A DNA stretch of 64,000 nt from Escherichia phage vB-Eco-KMB23. Below the pieces are notes generated by a model. It saw only the letters and a list, made by a program, of their open reading frames with translations, searched no databases and was not told where the DNA came from. The stretch is taken from the sequence record OR525702.1, one strand, 5' to 3'. Position 1 is the stretch's first letter. Each line of letters starts with the position of its first letter. Below, piece by piece: positions 5,926-59,517 of the stretch. The position numbers were made by a program, and so were the translations under genes.

Positions 5926-6144
5926 TTATTTCTCTAATATAAAATAAAAATCATCATCTGTTAAATGATACCGATAGTTTAATTCTACACCATTAGATTT
6001 AAAAGCGGTATCATACGGATTTTCTGGATCAATATCAATGTCAAGAGCTAAAACTTCCCTGAGATACATTTTAAGTAAATAGGGAATAGCTTCAACTTCA
6101 GGTATTTCTTCCAAGAATCCGGAGAGGTTAATCGTTAGCCTCAT
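5926..6144 (-). CDS. Hypothetical protein, 72 aa
   Basis: ORF track; directly downstream of gene 55. Confidence 0.5.
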
Positions 6145-6685
6145 ATAAAAAATCCAAACTAGGAGAATCGTCTACAACACTTTTCTTTTCAGCCCCCGGT
6201 GTTCTATAGGTTGATTCTTCGTAATGCGTCATTTTATCGTAGATGTCTTGAATAAAAGTTTCATCTACTAACGCAACCATATCGTCGTCACGACTGTCAT
6301 AGACATTGTGAACGAAGTAACTATATTTCTTTGCAACTTCCTTACGTTCTTTTTTAATACGCTGGACGAATGCATTAAAACAAGCTTGAGTTATATATGC
6401 ATGTGGGTTTTTATATTTCGTTTCATCAAAATTATGAAGCCCCTTAATAGAAGCTTCTATACCATCTGCAATCATTTCTTGTTTCCAAGACTGGGTGTAT
6501 CCTGAAAAGTTGAAACGTTTAGATAAGCCTTCTGCAATAAGCATAATGGCTAATCCGATAGTATCATTCTGACGAACTACTTTATTTGGGTCTTTATTAT
6601 TTGCTAATTCTGTTTTCCAATCAATAATAGCTTGTAAAAGCTCTTTATTGTTTACGTAATTATATTTAGGCTTAGTTTCTGACAT
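6128..6685 (-). CDS. 55: Late-transcription sigma factor gp55
   Basis: From [24 protein letters not shown] the product is 185 aa, matching T4 gp55; the ORF track adds a 2-codon upstream extension. Confidence 0.9.
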
Positions 6686-18677: not shown

Positions 18678-19205
18678 TTATGCGAGTACCGTCTTTAACC
18701 GTTCTTCAAACTTCCGAAGAGTATTTTGGCGTTCAGCTCTTTGCTTTTTGTAAGTTTCAATACGCTCTGAAATGAGAGCGTATCGTTCATTTACTGATTC
18801 TTTCATAAAATCAGGAATTTCACGAGAAGCTTTAATCTCATCAAATTTATCAATAACAGCTTGCTCTTCAGCAATTAAGTTATCATACATTAAAATATCT
18901 TTCTTGATGAACTCAATATCTTCTTGAGTTACACGAGATAATTTAGATGCTTTATCCTTTTTGTACTGTTCGTTAGTATCACGAGACCAGTGTAATGTAC
19001 GATTTTTATTCGTATTTTTGTAAATTTCTACAATACCAATTTCATCAATAATAACGATCCAATTCCAACGGGATTTGTAAATTTGTCCTCCATCAACAGT
19101 GATTTCACCTCCGATTGAGATGTCATTAAAGAACTTACTCTGTGCTTCAGATTTAAATTTACCATCGTTGTAATTTACTAAGTTGAAAATATCTTTAGCG
19201 TTCAT
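18678..19205 (-). CDS. Hypothetical protein (start adjusted to MNAKDIFNLV)
   Basis: ORF-track start 19265 lies inside an early promoter; the internal ATG at 19203-19205 is preceded by a GGAGG RBS. Confidence 0.55.
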   Translation of the reverse strand: MNAKDIFNLVNYNDGKFKSEAQSKFFNDISIGGEITVDGGQIYKSRWNWIVIIDEIGIVEIYKNTNKNRTLHWSRDTNEQYKKDKASKLSRVTQEDIEFIKKDILMYDNLIAEEQAVIDKFDEIKASREIPDFMKESVNERYALISERIETYKKQRAERQNTLRKFEERLKTVLA

Positions 19206-19233
19206 TTTCTGTTCCTCCGTAGTTGATAGTTGT

Positions 19234-19263
19234 ATAGTACCACAGAGGAACAGTCTTGTAAAC
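19234..19263 (-). promoter_or_regulatory. T4-type early promoter
   Basis: Minus strand GTTTAC ... TACTAT; GGAGG RBS and ATG follow. Confidence 0.5.
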
Positions 19264-20726: not shown

Positions 20727-20750
20727 AAAAAAGGGAGCCCGAAGGCTCCC
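20727..20750 (-). terminator. Rho-independent terminator after NTase gene
   Basis: Minus strand GGGAGCCTTCGGGCTCCC followed by TTTTTT. Confidence 0.7.
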
Positions 20751-20752
20751 TA

Positions 20753-21766
20753 TCATTTATAATAACTTCGGTGGTTTTCAAGATAGACCTTCTCAAGGAA
20801 GTCATCCCAGAAACTCATGTCTACTGTTTTAGGCATACCATTCTTAGAAGCTTCAGTAGATGCTGCTTCTACTTGATCGACCACATCTTCCAAAAACTCT
20901 TGAACTGTTTTAAATGGATGTTTACCCAACTTCACGTCGAGAATAAATGGAGCATCTTGGAGTGGATAAATCAAGTCGCCAGTTTTGTAAATTTCCAATA
21001 GTTGAAGTCCACCACGACAAGCATGACTTAGTGCTTTCCAATCAATACCTTCATTAGCTTCGGCCTTACGAGCACGTTCACCATATTCAGCATCTAATTT
21101 GTTCAGTGACTGCTTAAGCTCAATAAGAGAAAGCGTTGTCTGATATTTACGACCCAGCACTGTATAGAACGTTTGTGGACCTGTTTTCTCATGATTATGG
21201 AATACCCATTCACAGAATTCGTTCTCTGGAAGACGATGCTTAATATCTTCAACTTTAGTACGACGCTGCTTAATGGAACCGTCTTCTTGGTAATCAACCC
21301 ATTGCTCAGGGATTTGATTAACTACTTTCAATACATCACGTAATGCAGCCAAACGAGAACCCTTGACGCCGTATTTAGAAGCTTGCTTGCGGACATATCC
21401 TAAATAGGATTTCATGTTAGTCGTATAAAAACGAGAACGGTTGTCTTGAATAAACTTCCACACATCAGGCAAATCAGATTTAACCACTAGTTCAGGTGGA
21501 GTGTGAAGCATATCCAATGCTACAGTTTCACCATCTGCTGCTAATTTAAAGAAATATTTAAGACTGTATAGTTCATGGTCAATATCATCTTTAGTGTTTT
21601 TAGATGATGTGTTGTTAGTGTTTTTACTCATGTGCTCTTTGACATTTCCGATAAGAATATCACGAGCAGGAGGAACAAAGATTTCTTTAAAATCTACATC
21701 AGATTCTGGGGTAGAAGTTCCATAAAGATGACTACCAAAATAGCTTTTCATTACTGTTTTCATCAT
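20753..21766 (-). CDS. Predicted pol-beta-superfamily nucleotidyltransferase, 337 aa
   Basis: N-terminal motif YFGSHLYGTSTPESDVDFKEIFV (GS...[DE]h[DE]h NTase signature); followed by strong terminator hairpin. Confidence 0.55.
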   Translation of the reverse strand: MMKTVMKSYFGSHLYGTSTPESDVDFKEIFVPPARDILIGNVKEHMSKNTNNTSSKNTKDDIDHELYSLKYFFKLAADGETVALDMLHTPPELVVKSDLPDVWKFIQDNRSRFYTTNMKSYLGYVRKQASKYGVKGSRLAALRDVLKVVNQIPEQWVDYQEDGSIKQRRTKVEDIKHRLPENEFCEWVFHNHEKTGPQTFYTVLGRKYQTTLSLIELKQSLNKLDAEYGERARKAEANEGIDWKALSHACRGGLQLLEIYKTGDLIYPLQDAPFILDVKLGKHPFKTVQEFLEDVVDQVEAASTEASKNGMPKTVDMSFWDDFLEKVYLENHRSYYK

Positions 21767-22224
21767 TCAGCCTTATATTCAATAACAGGACATACTTTAG
21801 CTTTACGAGCTTTTAAAAATTCAACGATAATCGATTTCTTGGGTTGAATAGGAGGTAAACCTTTATTTTTCCTATCAATGTTTTCTACGTGTAAAGCATA
21901 ATCCTTTTTCCATTTATAATCTTTATATTTTTCACGCAAATGTACAGGAATAACAAATGAACCAATAATAAGTAAAACAACCAAAAGCGCAAGTATAAAT
22001 GCTGATGGAAGCAAAGTCCATAAACTACCAAAAATAAGCCAACGCTGTAAACTTTCTGCACAAATAATTGTTAGCCCTACGAGTATAGCACACCCAAAAA
22101 TAGAAACGAAAAATGTAGGGATAACAATAGACCAAAAATATGCGCATAGTGTCTTAGGTCGTTGCCATTCATCGTTAAACAATTTGAATAATTTATAGTG
22201 CCAAGAGTTTTCATTAATAATCAT
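21763..22224 (-). CDS. Membrane protein, 153 aa
   Basis: Several hydrophobic helices; stop overlaps the NTase start (ATGA). Confidence 0.55.
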   Translation of the reverse strand: MIINENSWHYKLFKLFNDEWQRPKTLCAYFWSIVIPTFFVSIFGCAILVGLTIICAESLQRWLIFGSLWTLLPSAFILALLVVLLIIGSFVIPVHLREKYKDYKWKKDYALHVENIDRKNKGLPPIQPKKSIIVEFLKARKAKVCPVIEYKAE

Positions 22225-22226
22225 AA

Positions 22227-22748
22227 CTATCCTTTCATTGAAGGCGTAACAGTTGTTAAATACTTAATCATAGCTTCAGCTTCTGATTTTGATAGTGAAA
22301 TTTCTTCACCGTTTTGGCGAATAGAAACAAAATCTGGATGACGATCACCACCAGCTTTTAAAACACACATATAAGTATCAGCTTCGCCTTCAATATTTGA
22401 AATGATTGAAGCAGTTCCACATGAATGCGGTTTTTGATAAATCAATACAGCTTTTCTTCCACCATTTGACTGTTCATAGGCTTTTAATACATCAAACAAA
22501 TCAGTTCTTTTATCAATAGCTAAGATGTTATTTTCATCTTCAATATTAAATCCTTCGGATACTTCATAAAGAGTTACCCATAAATCACCGATGTCAATAA
22601 CAGCATTTACTTTTCCACGGCTTTCAAGAGTATGACAAATTTTCTTGATTTCGTCATAACTCATTTTAATAATATCATCTCCTTGACTAAGGAAGATGTC
22701 ATTTTTAAATTCAACACGAATTAAACCACTTCCACTTGAAATAAACAT
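22227..22748 (-). CDS. Hypothetical protein, 173 aa (paralog of 22755..23321)
   Basis: Shares C-terminal motif SKSEAEAMIKYLTTVTPSM with the neighbour's TKDEAIALKTYLDSVIPTM. Confidence 0.55.
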   Translation of the reverse strand: MFISSGSGLIRVEFKNDIFLSQGDDIIKMSYDEIKKICHTLESRGKVNAVIDIGDLWVTLYEVSEGFNIEDENNILAIDKRTDLFDVLKAYEQSNGGRKAVLIYQKPHSCGTASIISNIEGEADTYMCVLKAGGDRHPDFVSIRQNGEEISLSKSEAEAMIKYLTTVTPSMKG

Positions 22749-22754
22749 ATTTCC

Positions 22755-23321
22755 TCACTTTGAAATCATAGTTGGAATGACAGAATCAAGATAAGTCTTT
22801 AGCGCAATAGCTTCGTCTTTGGTAAATGTGACAATATGTGCTCGAAAATCATCAATTTGACGAATAGTTAAGACATCTCCTTCTTCATAACATTTTGATA
22901 CATTTAAAACAGTTTCATCATTCTGATCGCACTGATCGCAAGCGTTAGTAATAATAGCATTGCAATTTTTAAGCCATTTTAAACTATGTTTTCTTTCATT
23001 AGAATAATAAAAATATTTAATGTAAGTTATAAAATTATCCCAATTATTAATTGATAAGCATATTGACTCGCTTTTAATATTAAATCCTGGGCATGAAGAA
23101 TAAAAATGAATTTTATGCTCATCATTAATGCTTACAATTTTATCAGTGTAAGCGTATTCAATTTGGGTTAAACGAACAATTTCACTAGGTGTAAAATATA
23201 GCATATCGTCTTCTTGCGTCAAACGATACATGTTATTTACTTTTTCTATAGCCAATTCGCCAAAAAGCGGACTAACTTCTAATACTAATCGTTTCATATT
23301 GATTCTCTTCGACTCACTCAC
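22755..23321 (-). CDS. Hypothetical protein, 188 aa, GTG start (or ATG at MKRLV)
   Basis: ORF track; paralogous C-terminus to 22227..22748. Confidence 0.55.
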   Translation of the reverse strand: MSESKRINMKRLVLEVSPLFGELAIEKVNNMYRLTQEDDMLYFTPSEIVRLTQIEYAYTDKIVSINDEHKIHFYSSCPGFNIKSESICLSINNWDNFITYIKYFYYSNERKHSLKWLKNCNAIITNACDQCDQNDETVLNVSKCYEEGDVLTIRQIDDFRAHIVTFTKDEAIALKTYLDSVIPTMISK

Positions 23322-23323
23322 AA

Positions 23324-23428
23324 TTACATACTCCTTTGAATAATATCAATAATGTTGTTCACCAGATTATAAGTAAACATTGGGTAATTATATTGAATCA
23401 TCACATACACAACAAACAAAACTTTCAT
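23324..23428 (-). CDS. Candidate 34-aa hydrophobic peptide (MKVLFVVYVMIQYNYPMFTYNLVNNIIDIIQRSM)
   Basis: Below ORF-track cutoff; found by manual translation; AAGGAG RBS 6 nt upstream of ATG, immediately downstream of an early promoter. Confidence 0.3.
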   Translation of the reverse strand: MKVLFVVYVMIQYNYPMFTYNLVNNIIDIIQRSM

Positions 23429-23444
23429 TCTCTTCTCCTTGACA

Positions 23445-23486
23445 GTTGACAAGATTACTATACCATAACCTTGTCAACTTGTAAAC
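23445..23486 (-). promoter_or_regulatory. Early promoter with overlapping dyad symmetry, start of the NTase operon
   Basis: Minus strand GTTTACA -35 and TATAGT -10; 9-bp inverted repeat GTTGACAAG/CTTGTCAAC (23445-23453 and 23470-23478) brackets the -10. Confidence 0.45.
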
Positions 23487-23488
23487 CA

Positions 23489-23662
23489 TTAAATGACGTT
23501 TTCAATAAAATTCTGAAGCTTTGTATGAGCATCAACCATGATTTTCATTTCTTCTTTGGCGAAAGCTGTACCTCTTTCCCGAGAAGAACATTCATAATCA
23601 GAAACTGCATTAGCATATTCTTCAATTAGCTTCATTAAAAACATCTGCTTTTCAGTTTTCAT
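23489..23662 (-). CDS. Candidate 57-aa small protein (MKTEKQMFLMKLIEEYANAV...)
   Basis: Below ORF-track cutoff; manual translation; start overlaps stop of upstream gene (coupling); coordinates approximate. Confidence 0.3.
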   Translation of the reverse strand: MKTEKQMFLMKLIEEYANAVSDYECSSRERGTAFAKEEMKIMVDAHTKLQNFIENVI

Positions 23663-23846
23663 TATTCCACCTAATCATTTCAAGGTATTGAACTAACTTA
23701 GCTTTGGATTTATCCAAATCCTTTTTAGCTGCTTCTATACCATCGTATGAGTATCCTTCACAATGCTCAACTGCCAATTGGTATGAATCTATTTCAACAT
23801 CACGTGCTAATTTAATGATTTTTTCAAACTGTTCACGTGTTAGCAT
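23652..23846 (-). CDS. Hypothetical small protein, 64 aa (EQ-K family)
   Basis: ORF track; N-terminus MLTREQFEKIIKLARDV. Confidence 0.45.
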   Translation of the reverse strand: MLTREQFEKIIKLARDVEIDSYQLAVEHCEGYSYDGIEAAKKDLDKSKAKLVQYLEMIRWNNEN

Positions 23847-23848
23847 AC

Positions 23849-24052
23849 TTAAACTCTCGTATTATGATCGATAATTTCATCAAGAAACATATCTAAAGCT
23901 TCTACAGCATTATCAACTTTAGCTTCAAGTTCTTCAGCACCTTTATTTGCAATGCCTGACGAAAACCAAGCAAAGTCACTAAGTTCCTCATCTGCTTTGC
24001 GAATTAAAGCTACCAATTCCTTAATTTTATCCGCTTGTTCGATACTAATCAT
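23849..24052 (-). CDS. Hypothetical small protein (start adjusted to [16 protein letters not shown])
   Basis: ORF track gives 23849..24088; internal Met avoids overlap with upstream gene. Confidence 0.45.
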   Translation of the reverse strand: MISIEQADKIKELVALIRKADEELSDFAWFSSGIANKGAEELEAKVDNAVEALDMFLDEIIDHNTRV

Positions 24053-24240
24053 TATTCCACCACATATGAAAGAGAGAATATTGCACACGCCATGTGAGTT
24101 GCAACTTCATCACACATATTATAACGTTTCTTAAGAAGTTCTACAAGTTCTTCACTAGTAACTTCATCCATGTCGACGAAAAAATCACCATTAATGATGA
24201 CGTAGATATTTCCTTCTTGATTGAGTGCTTCAATTTTCAT
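24052..24240 (-). CDS. Hypothetical small protein (start adjusted to [10 protein letters not shown])
   Basis: ORF-track start lies inside a promoter; internal ATG preceded by GAGGAG RBS. Confidence 0.45.
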
Positions 24241-24268: not shown

Positions 24269-24298
24269 ATAGTATCACAGCTCAAACGGAAAGTAAAC
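24269..24298 (-). promoter_or_regulatory. T4-type early promoter
   Basis: Minus strand GTTTAC ... TACTAT; downstream GAGGAG RBS. Confidence 0.5.
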
Positions 24299-24308
24299 CG
24301 GTAAAATG

Positions 24309-24330
24309 AAAAAAGTCTCCCGAAGGAGAC
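24309..24330 (-). terminator. Rho-independent terminator
   Basis: Minus strand GTCTCCTTCGGGAGAC followed by TTTTTT. Confidence 0.7.
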
Positions 24331-24335
24331 TAATG

Positions 24336-28162: not shown

Positions 28163-28624
28163 TCATTGAGTTTTAATTACTGCTTTAGAAGCCTTTCCTG
28201 GTAAACGACGACTGTTGATAATTGCCATCCTGCATTGAAGCGACGGGTCTTTGAACTTCGCATTAGGTTTACAAACTGTAAATCCAAGCCAAAGATTTCC
28301 ATCTGTGATTTCTAAACGTCCAGGACGATATTCAACCCCATCAATAAAATCCTCGTCAATGTCAGGACGCGGAGGCATACTCAGGAATTCATTAACTTCT
28401 AAAACATGGTCTTTTATTTTATGGAATAATTCAAAAACGTATGTCTCATCAATCTCCCGTTGAATTGCGCGATCAAGAAGATGCTGAGAATATTTTAGAT
28501 GAAACGATGAGACTCCTGCTGCTTTTGATGCCTCACGAATCTCATTGTTAATTTGACGAAACTCCGACTCAAAGTGACGACGAAGCTTATTTCGACGGAT
28601 AAAAACTTCTGTATTGATAGTCAT
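28163..28624 (-). CDS. regB: Sequence-specific endoribonuclease RegB
   Basis: 153 aa as in T4 RegB; own early promoter and AAGAGGAG RBS upstream. Confidence 0.8.
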   Translation of the reverse strand: MTINTEVFIRRNKLRRHFESEFRQINNEIREASKAAGVSSFHLKYSQHLLDRAIQREIDETYVFELFHKIKDHVLEVNEFLSMPPRPDIDEDFIDGVEYRPGRLEITDGNLWLGFTVCKPNAKFKDPSLQCRMAIINSRRLPGKASKAVIKTQ

Positions 28625-28651
28625 GTTATTCTCCTCTTAACTGATAGAAAA

Positions 28652-28681
28652 ATTATACCACAGTCAAGAGGAAAAGTAAAC
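28652..28681 (-). promoter_or_regulatory. T4-type early promoter upstream of regB
   Basis: Minus strand GTTTAC, 18-nt spacer, TATAAT. Confidence 0.55.
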
Positions 28682-28683
28682 AA

Positions 28684-29004
28684 TTATTCTTTAAATCTAA
28701 TCAATTTATTCATAGACTTTGAAACTTCTGCACGAACCTCATGTAGATTTTTGAGCTGTTCAAGACGCTGCGTATAGTAAGCAATTTCATCTTCTTCGAG
28801 ACAGTCCTGTGAATCTTCTTTAAGATAACGTGCATAGTCCTGAAAAGCGTTACGAACTACTTCCTGAAAATCATCAAGACTTTGAATTTTCTTAGGAGCA
28901 GCAGATACACGACGAGGGGCAGTATAATACTCATAACCAAACCCTGCGCTTAATTGAGCCATTAGTATTTTTCCTCTGGTTGGAACACTGCACGACAAGC
29001 CCAC
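28684..29004 (-). CDS. Hypothetical protein, 106 aa
   Basis: ORF track. Confidence 0.5.
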
Positions 29005-39534: not shown

Positions 39535-39720
39535 TTATTCACCTTTAGAAATTTTATCCATAACGATAGCAATTAAACCAATTAAAAATGCTACTACAAG
39601 TGAAAACGCATTTTCTGCTGTAGTTAATAATCCGCATATAAATCCAACAAACATTGAAAAACTAAAAGCAGAAGCAGAAATTGCAATAGCAACATTTCGA
39701 ATTAATTCACAACGTTTCAT
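39535..39720 (-). CDS. Small membrane protein, 61 aa
   Basis: Two hydrophobic helices; GAGGAG RBS and early promoter upstream. Confidence 0.5.
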   Translation of the reverse strand: MKRCELIRNVAIAISASAFSFSMFVGFICGLLTTAENAFSLVVAFLIGLIAIVMDKISKGE

Positions 39721-39748
39721 TTTATTCTCCTCGGTAGTTGATAGGGTA

Positions 39749-39778
39749 ATAGTATCACTACCCTATCTAAAAGTAAAC
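39749..39778 (-). promoter_or_regulatory. T4-type early promoter with -10 centred in a 9-bp inverted repeat
   Basis: GTTTAC -35; -10 core atagtatcac flanked by GATAGGGTA / TACCCTATC (39740-39748, 39759-39767). Confidence 0.5.
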
Positions 39779-40012
39779 TTATTTTTTACGAAAAATTGAT
39801 TTATTTTCTGCTGCCCATTTTTCAATAACTGCAGCAGGACCAGTAACAACAATTTTATCACCGTAATCTTCTGCGGCGAGTTGACCGAAATTATCTAATG
39901 CATCACGAAGAACTCCATGAGGCATTTCACCCATTTTATCTTTCTTGCCGGTGTAAATAAACTCAACTTTTACATCAGAAGATTCAGCGATAAACTCTTT
40001 GAAAGTTTTCAT
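39779..40012 (-). CDS. Internal-protein-like (capsid-targeting sequence) protein, about 78 aa
   Basis: Start placed at MKTFKEFIAESS (capsid-targeting consensus) rather than the track's upstream extension; own early promoter at about 40047-40076. Confidence 0.6.
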   Translation of the reverse strand: MKTFKEFIAESSDVKVEFIYTGKKDKMGEMPHGVLRDALDNFGQLAAEDYGDKIVVTGPAAVIEKWAAENKSIFRKK

Positions 40013-40046
40013 TTTGATTTCCATTTGGTTTTGTTTTGATAGAGTA

Positions 40047-40076
40047 ATAGTATCACTACTAAAACCCTGTGTAAAC
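40047..40076 (-). promoter_or_regulatory. T4-type early promoter upstream of internal-protein-like gene
   Basis: Minus strand ttcacaaagttGTTTACac ... TACTAT; upstream 30 nt duplicated at 40402-40431. Confidence 0.5.
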
Positions 40077-40088
40077 AACTTTGTGAAA

Positions 40089-40346
40089 TTATTTTAAATC
40101 TTCTAATCGTTTCTTCATCTTAGAACCATTTTTAGCAATTTCTCCTGCATCTGAGCATAATGCTAAAAGTGCTTTAACTTTAGTTTGGTCTCCTTTAAAA
40201 GATGAAGGATCGACTGCAGCAGCAAGTTCTTTAATACGAGAGAAAAGACGCTCAGCTTCAGCTAAAGCCATTCCAAGCTTTACTTCCATACCGTGGGAAG
40301 ATTCGGTGATAGTAGTTTTTGTAGCAAACTCTTTGAAAGTTTTCAT
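40089..40346 (-). CDS. Internal protein I-like (capsid-targeted, injected), 85 aa
   Basis: N-terminus MKTFKEFATKTTITES with I-x-E cleavage motif; adjacent to 57B as ipI is in T4; own early promoter. Confidence 0.65.
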   Translation of the reverse strand: MKTFKEFATKTTITESSHGMEVKLGMALAEAERLFSRIKELAAAVDPSSFKGDQTKVKALLALCSDAGEIAKNGSKMKKRLEDLK

Positions 40347-40377
40347 TTTTATTTTCCTAATTAATTTTGATGAGGTA

Positions 40378-40407
40378 ATAGTATCACTACCTCATCAGTA
40401 TGTAAAC
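40378..40407 (-). promoter_or_regulatory. T4-type early promoter upstream of ipI-like gene, -10 centred in inverted repeat
   Basis: GTTTAC -35; -10 core atagtatcac flanked by GATGAGGTA / TACCTCATC (40369-40377, 40388-40396). Confidence 0.5.
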
Positions 40408-40419
40408 AACTTTGTGAAA

Positions 40420-56477: not shown

Positions 56478-58057
56478 GTAATAATACATATCAACACGTT
56501 TCTAATGAATCTCGCTATGTAAAATTTGATCCAACCGGTACAAATTTTCCGGCAGAGATTACTGATGTTCAGGCTGCTATAGCAGCCATTTCTCCTGCTG
56601 GTGTAAATGGAGTTCCTGACGCATCATCAACAACAAAGGGAATTTTATTTCTTGCCACTGAACAGGAAGTTATCGACGGAACTGATAATACCAAAGCAGT
56701 TACACCAGCAACGCTGGCAACAAGATTATCTTATCCAAACGCAACTGAAACTGTTTATGGATTAACAAGATATTCAACCAATGATGAAGCAATTGCCGGA
56801 GTTAATAATGAATCTTCTATAACTCCTGCTAAATTTACTGTTGCCCTTAATAATGCCTTTGAAACTCGTGTTTCAACTGAATCATCAAATGGAGTTATTA
56901 AAATTTCATCTCTACCGCAAGCATTAGCTGGCGCAGATGATACTACTGCAATGACTCCGTTAAAAACACAGCAGTTAGCTATTAAATTAATTGCGCAAAT
57001 CGCTCCTTCTGAAACCACAGCTACCGAATCTGACCAAGGTGTTGTTCAATTAGCGACAGTAGCTCAAGTTCGTCAAGGAACATTAAGAGAAGGCTATGCA
57101 ATTTCTCCTTATACGTTAATGAATTCTACTGCTACTGAAGAATATAAAGGCGTAATTAAATTAGGAACACAATCAGAAGTTAACTCGAATAATGCTTCTG
57201 TTGCGGTTACTGGCGCAACTCTTAATGGTCGTGGTTCTACAACGTCAATGAGAGGCGTAGTTAAATTAACTACAACCGCCGGCTCACAGAGTGGAGGTGA
57301 TGCTTCATCAGCACTAGCTTGGAATGCTGATGTTATCCACCAAAGAGGTGGTCAAACTATTAATGGAACACTTCGCATTAATAATACGCTCACGATAGCT
57401 TCAGGTGGAGCAAATATTACCGGAACAGTTAACATGACCGGTGGTTATATTCAAGGTAAGCGTGTCGTAACACAAAATGAAATTGATAGAACCATTCCTG
57501 TCGGAGCTATTATGATGTGGGCCGCTGATAGTCTTCCTAGTGATGCTTGGCGTTTTTGCCATGGCGGAACTGTTTCAGCATCAGATTGTCCATTATATGC
57601 TTCTAGAATTGGAACAAGATACGGCGGAAGTTCATCAAATCCTGGATTACCTGATATGCGCGGTCTTTTTGTTCGTGGCTCTGGTCGTGGCTCTCACTTA
57701 ACAAATCCAAATGTTAACGGTAATGACCAATTTGGCAAGCCTAGATTAGGCGTAGGTTGTACTGGTGGGTATGTTGGTGAAGTACAAAAACAACAGATGT
57801 CTTATCATAAACATGCTGGCGGATTTGGTGAGCATGATGATTCTGGAGCATTCGGTAATACCCGTAGATCAAATTTTGTTGGTACACGTAAAGGACTTGA
57901 CTGGGATAACCGTTCATATTTCACCAATGACGGTTATGAAATTGACCCAGCATCACAACGAAATTCCAAATATACATTAAATCGTCCTGAATTAATTGGA
58001 AATGAAACACGTCCATGGAACATTTCTTTAAACTACATAATTAAGGTAAAAGAATGA
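56474..58057 (+). CDS. 12: Short tail fibre protein gp12
   Basis: 527 aa as T4 gp12. Confidence 0.9.
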
Positions 58058-59517
58058 CAGATATTGTACTGAATGACTTACCATTCGTTGACGGCCCTCC
58101 TGCAGAGGGCCAGAGCCGCATTTCCTGGATTAAAAACGGCGAAGAAATATTAGGAGCTGACACACAGTATGGAAGCGAAGGTTCAATGAATAGACCTACA
58201 GTTTCTGTACTAAGAAATGTTGAAGTTCTTGATAAAAACATTGGAATACTCAAAACATCTTTAGAATCCGCGAATAGTGATATTAAAACAATTCAGGGCA
58301 TCTTAGATGTATCTGGTGATATTGAAGCTTTGGCCCAAATAAGTATCAATAAAAAGGATATTTCTGACCTTAAAACGCTAACCAGTGAACATACAGAAAT
58401 ATTAAATGGGACTAATAGTACGGTTGACAGCATTCTTGCTGATATTGGTCCATTTAACTCCGAGGCCAACTCTGTATACAGAACGATCAGAAATGATTTA
58501 CTGTGGATAAAGCGTGAACTTGGACAATATACAGGCCAAGATATTAATGGTCTTCCTGTTGTAGGAAATCCTAGCACAGGAATGAAGCATCGCATTATTA
58601 ATAATACTGATGTCATCACTTCACAGGGAATACGTTTAAGCGAATTAGAAACAAAATTCATTGAATCTGATGTAGGTTCTTTAACTATTGAAGTTGGTAA
58701 TCTTCGCGAAGAGCTTGGACCTAAACCACCGTCATTTTCACAAAACATCTACAGTCGTTTAAATGAAATTGACACTAAACAGACAACAGTTGAGTCTGAC
58801 ATTAGTGCTATTAAGACCTCAATAGGATATCCAGGAAATAATTCGATTATCACGAGTATTAATACAAACACTGATAATATTGCATCTATTAATTTAGAGC
58901 TAAATCAAAGTGGAGGTATTAAACAGCGTTTAACCGTTATTGAAACTTCTATTGGTTCAGATGATATTCCTTCGAGTATTAAAGGCCAAATCAAAGATAA
59001 TACAACTTCAATCGAAGCTCTAAATGGAATCGTCGGTGAAAACACTTCATCCGGTTTAAGAGCGAATGTTTCGTGGTTAAACCAAATTGTTGGAACTGAT
59101 TCTAGCGGTGGACAACCTTCTCCTCCTGGGTCTCTTTTAAACCGAGTTTCTACAATTGAAACTTCTGTTTCAAGCTTGAACAACGATGTTCAGAACCTAC
59201 AAGTAGAGATTGGTAATAACAGCACAGGAATTAAAGGGCAAGTTGTAGCGTTAAATACTTTAGTAAATGGAACTAATCCAAATGGTTCAACTGTCGAAGA
59301 ACGTGGATTAACCAATTCAATAAAAGCTAACGAAACCAACATTGCATCAGTTACACAAGAAGTGAATACAGCCAAAGGTAGTATATCTTCTCTGCAAGGT
59401 GATGTTCAAGCTCTACAAGAAGCAGGTTATATTCCTGAAGCTCCAAAAGATGGTCAAGCTTACGTTCGTAAAGACGGCGAATGGGTATTACTTTCTACCT
59501 TTTTATCACCAGCATAA
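58054..59517 (+). CDS. wac: Fibritin (whisker/neck antenna)
   Basis: 487 aa; coiled-coil segments; C-terminal foldon [27 protein letters not shown]. Confidence 0.95.

Follow-up and report, generated by a model that had tools for sequence, protein, structure and literature searches.

The locus considered here poses a simple question: is an inverted repeat that brackets the -10 hexamer of an early promoter the binding site of a regulatory protein, or does it owe its symmetry to a structure formed by a single nucleic acid strand? The repeat lies in a 64,000-nt stretch of the genome of Escherichia phage vB-Eco-KMB23 (OR525702.1), hereinafter the window, which belongs to Tequatrovirus (the T4-like phage group), has a G+C content of 32–38% and has its first 44 kb coded on the minus strand. 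A preliminary description of the site had read it as an operator conferring operon-specific regulation. We propose instead that the repeat is probably the stem of a cassette of the promoter-early stem-loop (PeSL) type. Most likely, the mobD.2 stem-loop is an ordinary feature of T4-like phages and a representative of a class already described, its promoter being annotated in the T4 record and its hairpin in the record of a relative.

The 1.4 kb around the repeat is 90–97% identical to about 500 Tequatrovirus genomes, and comparison with T4 gives the gene order in the sense direction as mobD.5, mobD.4, mobD.3, mobD.2a, a 60-bp gap, mobD.2, MobD.1, a 173-aa paralogue, a 153-aa membrane protein and nrdC.11 (Table 1). 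As the preliminary description had it, the promoter in the gap heads an NTase operon: the unit that begins there ends in the nrdC.11 nucleotidyltransferase. The counterparts of the upstream boundary are annotated in the T4 record U76612.1 as a terminator and 'early promoter 57.9'. Three tandem DUF7438 paralogues, namely mobD.2a, mobD.3 and a 79-aa ORF, occupy positions 23489–24088 (minus strand) of the window. Here, mobD.2a ends 2 nt before the G of the -35 element; in T4 a small indel reduces it to 38 aa and leaves a gap of 116 bp (6050–6166 of the T4 locus L001). The mobD HNH homing-endonuclease gene of T4 is missing from the window, which has the second y05I-like paralogue and the 153-aa membrane protein instead (21763–22748, minus strand). 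Among the relatives, RB3 has two ORFs inserted after mobD.2, one DUF7438 and one 'phage tudor', and the MobD.1 allele of Sf22 is merely 47% identical to that of the window.

Both nine-nucleotide arms first reported for the repeat, GTTGACAAG (23445–23453) and CTTGTCAAC (23470–23478), are found at exactly these positions, and the -10 hexamer TATAGT (23462–23457, minus strand) does lie between them. The repeat is nonetheless longer than first described: 14 pairs, one of them a G·T (G·U in RNA), join AGTTGACAAGGTTA (23479–23466) with TAATCTTGTCAACT (23457–23444), the sense strand being the minus strand, and the T4 counterpart is a perfect 14+14 repeat. The combination of TTTACA, a 17-nt spacer, a TG motif and TATAGT is the best promoter match of the region, and the same -35 and -10 bases were annotated by the depositors of the T4 record U76612.1 as minus_35_signal and minus_10_signal. 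Given the usual distance of 7 nt past the -10, transcription would start near G23450, which is within the 3' arm, and the promoter's own RNA would thus lack the 5' arm.

Table 1. Coordinates of the mobD.2 promoter cassette, of the genes and boundaries around it, and of two further promoter stems in the window.
Feature	Position	Strand	Remarks
AT-rich stretch upstream of the -35	23487..23515	-	Overlaps the end of mobD.2a; read from the sequence
-35 element GTTTACA	23480..23486; hexamer TTTACA 23485-23480	-	T4 early-promoter form; invariant in 14/14 homologues
Stem 5' arm AGTTGACAAGGTTA	23466..23479	-	Within the 17-nt spacer; includes the arm 23470-23478 of the preliminary description
Loop TGGTATAG	23458..23465	-	8 nt; TGn motif and five -10 bases
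-10 hexamer TATAGT	23457..23462	-	Preceded by TGg, giving an extended -10 (TGgTATAGT)
Stem 3' arm TAATCTTGTCAACT	23444..23457	-	Includes the arm 23445-23453 of the preliminary description
mobD.2 Shine-Dalgarno AAGGAG	23435..23440	-	4 nt past the stem; contains GGAG, then an A-rich run
mobD.2a	23489-23662	-	57-aa ORF; TAA stop 23491-23489
mobD.2	23324..23428	-	34-aa ORF, first downstream of the promoter; ATG at 23428; phrog_3515
MobD.1	22755-23321	-	188 aa; Pfam T4_y05I_N/C
Second y05I-like paralogue of MobD.1	22227-22748	-	173 aa
Membrane protein	21763-22224	-	153 aa; phrog_944
nrdC.11, RlaP-family nucleotidyltransferase	20753-21766	-	End of the unit
Intrinsic terminator closing the unit	20732..20751	-	Canonical: GC-rich stem, UUCG loop, T-run
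Upstream unit boundary	24269..24331	-	Intrinsic terminator 24331-24314, then early promoter with -10 TACTAT 24274-24269, preceding mobD.5
regB promoter stem CCTCTTGACTG / CAGTTAAGAGG	28624-28690; -10 TATAAT 28657-28652	-	RegB by Pfam PF10715
15-pair stem CTGTTCCTCTGTGGT... / ...ACGGAGGAACAG	19190-19262; -10 TACTAT at 19239	-	Strongest such hairpin of the window, z = -7.0

Two further promoter assignments were considered for the gap and set aside. A divergent promoter on the plus strand (TTGACA-16-TACCAT, 23439–23466) is probably fortuitous, its -35 reading TTGGCA in T4 and in the majority of relatives, and being absent from Mosigvirus. A middle promoter is not indicated: the site has no MotA box, and the T4 list gives PmobD at 57389 and PmobD.3 at 58381 with none at ~57957. 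A scan of the region against Rfam returned no family at the stem, the sole match being a sub-threshold, chance one elsewhere in the region.

Taken alone, the repeat is within chance expectation for 64 kb. Perfect repeats of at least 9 nt with a spacer of 3–30 nt number 21 in the window as against 12.1 ± 3.4 in dinucleotide shuffles, and a repeat with at least 13 of 14 positions matching occurs once, at the mobD.2 site, where 0.85 are expected; a test of the exact pattern of this repeat is trivial as a test of chance. Hence, the evidence has to be comparative. On the folding side, the local fold gives z = -5.4 when the flanks are shuffled around a fixed -10, and the 36-nt hairpin alone reaches -18.5 kcal/mol (z = -6.6); a z of -3.5 or below is attained by 5 of 300 random segments.

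We assembled homologues from GenBank phages, IMG/VR and metagenomes, using pattern searches anchored on the -35 element and the mobD.2 start and not on the stem, and aligned the 14 distinct ones, drawn from Tequatrovirus, Mosigvirus and metagenomes. Pairing of the helix is kept in 94.4% of the cells of this alignment and five pairs are changed on both sides (e.g., C-G to U-A, A-U to G-C and U-A to C-G), these being counts that overstate the number of events since few independent lineages are represented. The covariation score is 0.381 as against 0.208 for shuffled alignments, none of 500 of which reaches 0.381, and at most 0.133 when the partners are slid. The one-sided changes are mostly to G·U on the sense strand (nine cells), and just two non-pairs are seen, one C·A and one U·U. 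According to the preliminary description, its reading would fall if the repeat were missing from close relatives; the stem is in fact conserved across Tequatrovirus and Mosigvirus, a conservation no less suited to an RNA stem than to an operator. The Gaprivervirus VR25, which has MobD.1 and nrdC.11 while the gap, promoter and hairpin are absent at the equivalent place, is uninformative with regard to the stem.

The two strands differ in their capacity to form the hairpin. The sense hairpin comes to -18.5 kcal/mol in the window, -19.1 in T4 and -17.9 in the Tequatrovirus form met most often, whereas the antisense hairpin comes to -12.1, -16.8 and -7.0 kcal/mol, respectively. Across nine promoters of the window with stems spanning the -10, the sense strand is the stabler one in eight, by 2.4–9.4 kcal/mol, as against a mean sense–antisense gap of 0.96 kcal/mol for random 51-mers from the same coding strand. 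The comparison demonstrates, at the level of sequence, that the stem has been maintained in evolution, and that it is on the sense strand that it has been maintained, with the caveat that the compensatory changes could come from template switching in a quasi-palindrome instead of selection. The bias towards G·U together with the collapse of the antisense hairpin speaks more for folding of the sense RNA (or of the sense strand of the DNA) than for a dyad in duplex DNA or a cruciform with both sides folded. A modest novelty of the analysis lies here: covariation and strand asymmetry together are evidence of selection on the T-even stems as structures of the sense strand.

The mobD.2 promoter is not alone in this geometry. 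Among 17 promoters of the GTTTAC type with a downstream ribosome site in the window, six have a hairpin spanning the -10 with z of -3.5 or below, their -10 elements being at 19239, 23462, 28657 (regB), 35387, 39754 and 40383 (IP gene), and weaker stems that span the -10 are found at three more (16261, 31358 and 40052). The arm sequences are unrelated among these promoters, save for the paralogous copies of the IP locus. The preliminary description was thus right in both its remarks on the IP-gene promoters: the same layout with the -10 in the loop recurs at 40383, 40052 and 39754, and the arms differ from one promoter to another. A geometry that recurs with unrelated arms points to a generic structural element as opposed to a binding sequence. 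At two of these promoters the 3' arm holds a ribosome site (Table 1). The regB Shine-Dalgarno has a predicted unpaired probability of 0.00 in read-through RNA as against 0.18 in the promoter's own RNA, and the stem at 19239 is predicted to mask the Shine-Dalgarno of a 175-aa ORF (18678–19205) in read-through RNA only.

Some further observations concern these other promoters. The dyads that had been compared with the mobD.2 site as 'IP-gene dyads' are those of the IP locus at 39720–40410 (minus strand), where three neighboring promoters (-10 at 40383, 40052 and 39754) have the loop gtgatactat in common. Compensated changes set their arms apart (GATGAGGTA/TACCTCATC as against GATAGGGTA/TACCCTATC), and two ORFs downstream of them start with MKTFKEF, as T-even internal proteins do. 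An association of y05I-like proteins with the other stem-loop promoters was also considered, and no link emerged; the ORF after the 19239 promoter has no Pfam match.

The class to which such elements may be assigned is that of the PeSLs, cassettes that join an early promoter to a stem-loop, occupy intergenic positions in the hyperplastic regions of T4-like genomes, and are laid out as an AT-rich upstream part, the early promoter, the stem-loop, and the following gene's Shine-Dalgarno and ATG at the 3' end (Arbiol et al. 2010, PMC2839356; Comeau et al. 2014, PMC4122927). According to the same studies, the stems mostly lie in the -35 to -10 interval or overlap the -10, and are drawn with G-T pairs; the T4/PST promoter consensus is TTTACW-N17-TAYWAT; one RB49 stem (PeSL211/210) cut lacZ expression as much as rrnB T1; and PeSLs have been proposed to be recombination joints (PMC2839356; PMC4122927). 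The mobD.2 site has every structural attribute of the class: a promoter of the form TTTACA-17-TATAGT with a TGn motif and a single departure from TAYWAT (G at position 5); a 14-pair stem of the subclass overlapping the -10 box; the full succession of parts in the sequence 23515–23426; and a location in the 60-bp gap that separates mobD.2a from mobD.2, among small ORFs and alongside gene content that differs between relatives. It shares with the described members the intergenic position between small non-essential early ORFs and the -10-overlapping stem with G-T pairs. It differs from the RB49 and phi1 stems, which are GC-rich (GGGG...CCCC) and one of which was shown to terminate, in that its own stem is AU-rich and without a U-tract; further, 'just upstream' of the promoter is where the legend of the PST figure puts the T-even stems, whereas the mobD.2 site has the -10 in the loop. 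The assignment to this type would place the site in a described class whose presumed roles are the insulation of small early gene modules and an aid to their shuffling between phages.

Closer in composition are the elements of the T-even IP loci, which Arbiol et al. (2010, PMC2839356), drawing on Repoila et al. 1994, call PeSL analogues with weaker AT-rich stems. As far as that summary describes them, they have in common with the mobD.2 site a T4-type early promoter and a weaker AT-rich stem of variable size, and the IP promoters of the window have the -10 in the loop; however, they have other arms and another loop (the IP loop being gtgatactat), and the mobD.2 stem is not a homologue of theirs in sequence.

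A second point of comparison is offered by the T4 hairpins at the genes e, soc, 49 and I-TevI, by which translation of read-through transcripts is blocked (reviewed in PMC3014915). As at mobD.2, the promoter is inside the hairpin, so that only RNA begun upstream can fold it; in contrast, the helix of these genes takes in the Shine-Dalgarno or AUG, and their inner promoter is a late or middle one, whereas the mobD.2 ribosome site lies 4 nt beyond the stem and is predicted to be open, and the inner promoter is early. For the mobD.2 Shine-Dalgarno, the predicted unpaired probability in read-through RNA is 0.71, and that in RNA from the promoter itself 0.75, and with the ribosome site predicted to be open in both transcripts no direct effect on translation is visible at mobD.2. 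In this respect it is unlike the regB (28657) and 19239 promoters, which do mask the Shine-Dalgarno.

Nor does the stem have the make-up of an intrinsic terminator. It resembles one in being a stable hairpin right after a stop codon, but it is long and AU-rich with a loop of 6–8 nt, unlike the GC stems with T-runs at 24331–24314 and 20751–20732; no U-tract follows it (CUGUCAAGGAG stands in that place), and the terminator scan did not list the site. Thus, the 'terminator' function, shown for one RB49 PeSL, is doubtful at mobD.2. The same hairpin is labelled as a rho-independent terminator by an automated tool in the record of phage ASO78A. That T-even stems are without terminator tails is the other modest novelty of this work, and the published 'terminator' label deserves an experimental check.

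Briefly, we advance the following mechanism for the mobD.2 cassette. A strong T4-type early promoter occupies the gap between mobD.2a and mobD.2, with a spacer complementary to what would be the first transcribed bases, such that the -10 comes to lie in the loop. As the promoter's own transcripts would start in the 3' arm, the hairpin could probably fold only in RNA arriving from further upstream, the likely sources being the early promoter at ~24274 and, in T4, also the middle promoter PmobD.3 (start at 58381). The hairpin would then mark the border between the upstream message and the mobD.2–nrdC.11 unit, and might either slow or attenuate the RNA polymerase reading through, or protect the 3' end of the upstream RNA, while promoter-proximal transcripts would stay unstructured. 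Accordingly understood, the element would act neither as a protein operator nor via a hidden ribosome binding site at mobD.2; its role would be that of a boundary or insulator on read-through RNA by way of attenuation, pausing or a protected 3' end. The conserved cassette may double as a recombination joint between gene modules, as has been proposed for PeSLs.

The sequence just past the stem might also be drawn into this scheme. The target of RegB/S1, as described, is a GGAG followed by an A-rich run, and the GGAG with its A-rich run 4 nt past the stem fits as a candidate for such a target. More tentatively, and as a possibility that we regard with some doubt, hairpins with the -10 in the loop might be a general device of T-even early promoters for marking RNAs by where they start, with the end of the 3' arm setting the outcome. 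At regB and the ORF 18678–19205 this would be a read-through RNA that cannot be translated. At mobD.2 it would be a boundary hairpin which, jointly with a RegB cut at the GGAG 4 nt past it, would protect the 3' end of the upstream message and sever the downstream one, i.e., a post-transcriptional insulator and not a PeSL 'terminator'.

As against an RNA-level function, the cassette might have no regulatory role at all, being instead a structural by-product or recombination joint that is kept symmetric by intrastrand template switching (quasi-palindrome correction), and serving at most as a homology patch for module shuffling along the lines of the mini-circle idea for PeSLs. It was in T4 that such correction of quasi-palindromes was first demonstrated. 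Between Mosigvirus and Tequatrovirus, similarity of the DNA is confined to mobD.2 and its promoter and stops at the -35 edge, the genes upstream of the cassette being unrelated (DUF7189 in Mosigvirus as against DUF7438 in the window). This end of homology is consistent with the recombination idea for PeSLs, and the ending of inter-genus homology at the cassette edge, like the very proposal of recombination sites for that class, speaks for a joint. So does the gene content just downstream of mobD.2, where close relatives differ (RB3 has extra ORFs and Sf22 a replaced MobD.1), although the breakpoints on that side are at the mobD.2 stop codon, outside the cassette. A further case is that of Escherichia phage FL18 (Mosigvirus; ~1320–1345 of its locus L013), in which the 8-nt loop is exactly inverted, CTATAACA for TGTTATAG, with both arms intact. 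The inversion turns the -10 into TAACAT and removes the TGn motif, a natural variant in which stem and promoter are separated, and it is a mark of hairpin-mediated template switching in DNA. Nevertheless, template switching would tend to symmetrize both strands and leaves the sense G·U bias of the imperfections unexplained, and a mere by-product or joint would not account for the -10 being in the loop at many promoters. We therefore hold it unlikely that this is all there is to the repeat.

The operator of the preliminary description can be put in its strongest form as a dyad over the -10 and the start that is bound by a dimeric DNA-binding protein (e.g., MobD.1 or its paralogue) which autoregulates the unit. 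Repressor operators that overlap the -10 and +1 of sigma-70 promoters are known, as in the case of LexA or of phage repressors, and the mobD.2 site is like them in having a dyad, with one G·T position in the window, centered on the core promoter. The dyad covers both the -10 and +1, the classic position for a repressor; its arm centers are 22 bp apart, about two helical turns; and MobD.1 and its paralogue, the two genes after mobD.2, fall in the Pfam family 'y05I-like putative transcription factor'. The preliminary description had suggested a search for the same dyad elsewhere in the genome. Neither the window nor a complete relative genome was found to contain a second copy, the full-dyad pattern occurring once per contig in IMG/VR, including a 167,948-bp genome, which is what an autoregulator predicts; a half-site search of the window allowing up to two mismatches gave nine matches as against 4.5 expected, none of them convincing. 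The symmetric two-arm changes between the genera could likewise reflect a co-evolving protein.

What distinguishes the mobD.2 site from operators of the LexA or phage-repressor type are its strand-specific imperfections, the want of co-variation with the candidate regulator and a layout common to unrelated promoters. On these three grounds, and on the further one that the dyad occurs but once in the window and in the complete relative genome, the claim of an operator with operon-specific regulation is not supported; nor did the analysis turn up a partner protein. First, the duplex symmetry is perfect in T4, but the window and most of its relatives have one or two G·T positions, which spoil the symmetry of the duplex while keeping the sense hairpin. 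Second, the dyad does not follow MobD.1, the candidate regulator considered here: the MobD.1 of Sf22 is 68% identical to the Mosigvirus protein and 47% to that of the window, yet Sf22 has the Tequatrovirus dyad, identical to that of RB3, whereas the Mosigvirus dyad differs at 3–4 pairs. Third, the layout is shared with unrelated arms by six of the 17 early promoters, five of them besides this one, and these have unrelated downstream genes as well. A review of prereplicative transcription describes no operator-type repressor of T4 early promoters. Such a protein-bound operator thus appears quite improbable to us, and the label would invent a repressor circuit that is otherwise unexpected in T4 biology. 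As for MobD.1 itself, a comparison with the PDB found no relative and PHROGs gives it as 'unknown function'; its homologue search yielded a shallow alignment, and the AlphaFold model (pLDDT 51.9) was too poor for a fold search. A literature search on y05I and mobD.2 returned nothing useful.

It is very unlikely, in our estimate, that the stem works by tuning the promoter at the DNA level, with a cruciform under negative supercoiling, or a hairpin of the sense strand, removing or exposing the -10. The -10 lies exactly in the loop at six promoters, the FL18 loop inversion implies that a DNA hairpin forms at least occasionally, and single-stranded DNA hairpins are also relatively tolerant of G·T mismatches, all of which such tuning would accommodate. 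However, a cruciform needs both strands to be folded, and the antisense one is weak (-7 kcal/mol) in the commonest variant; the place of the stems with respect to the promoter takes five different forms in RB49 and phi1, a variety that speaks against a role tied to -10 melting; and nothing in the present data favors a mechanism of this kind at sigma-70 promoters. Finally, that the repeat is a chance one without meaning is next to negligible as a prospect, for although such repeats arise about once, and 9-mers about twelve times, per shuffled window, this reading is already contradicted by the comparative data, with five compensated pairs conserved across genera, an exact centering on the -10 and a recurrence at other early promoters far above the rate in random segments.

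Certain annotations of this region in the records of related phages also call for comment. In the Yersinia phages fPS-65 (891–929 of its locus L010) and fPS-2 (385–414 of its locus L040), a 'predicted early promoter' is annotated inside the unannotated mobD.2 ORF and not at GTTTACA-17-TATAGT, which is probably a misplaced automated call. Likewise, the tiny mobD.x ORFs of RefSeq relatives are labelled as 'molybdopterin-guanine dinucleotide biosynthesis protein MobD' or 'helicase loader', labels that look like ones spread from the gene symbol or from weak matches as opposed to real functions.
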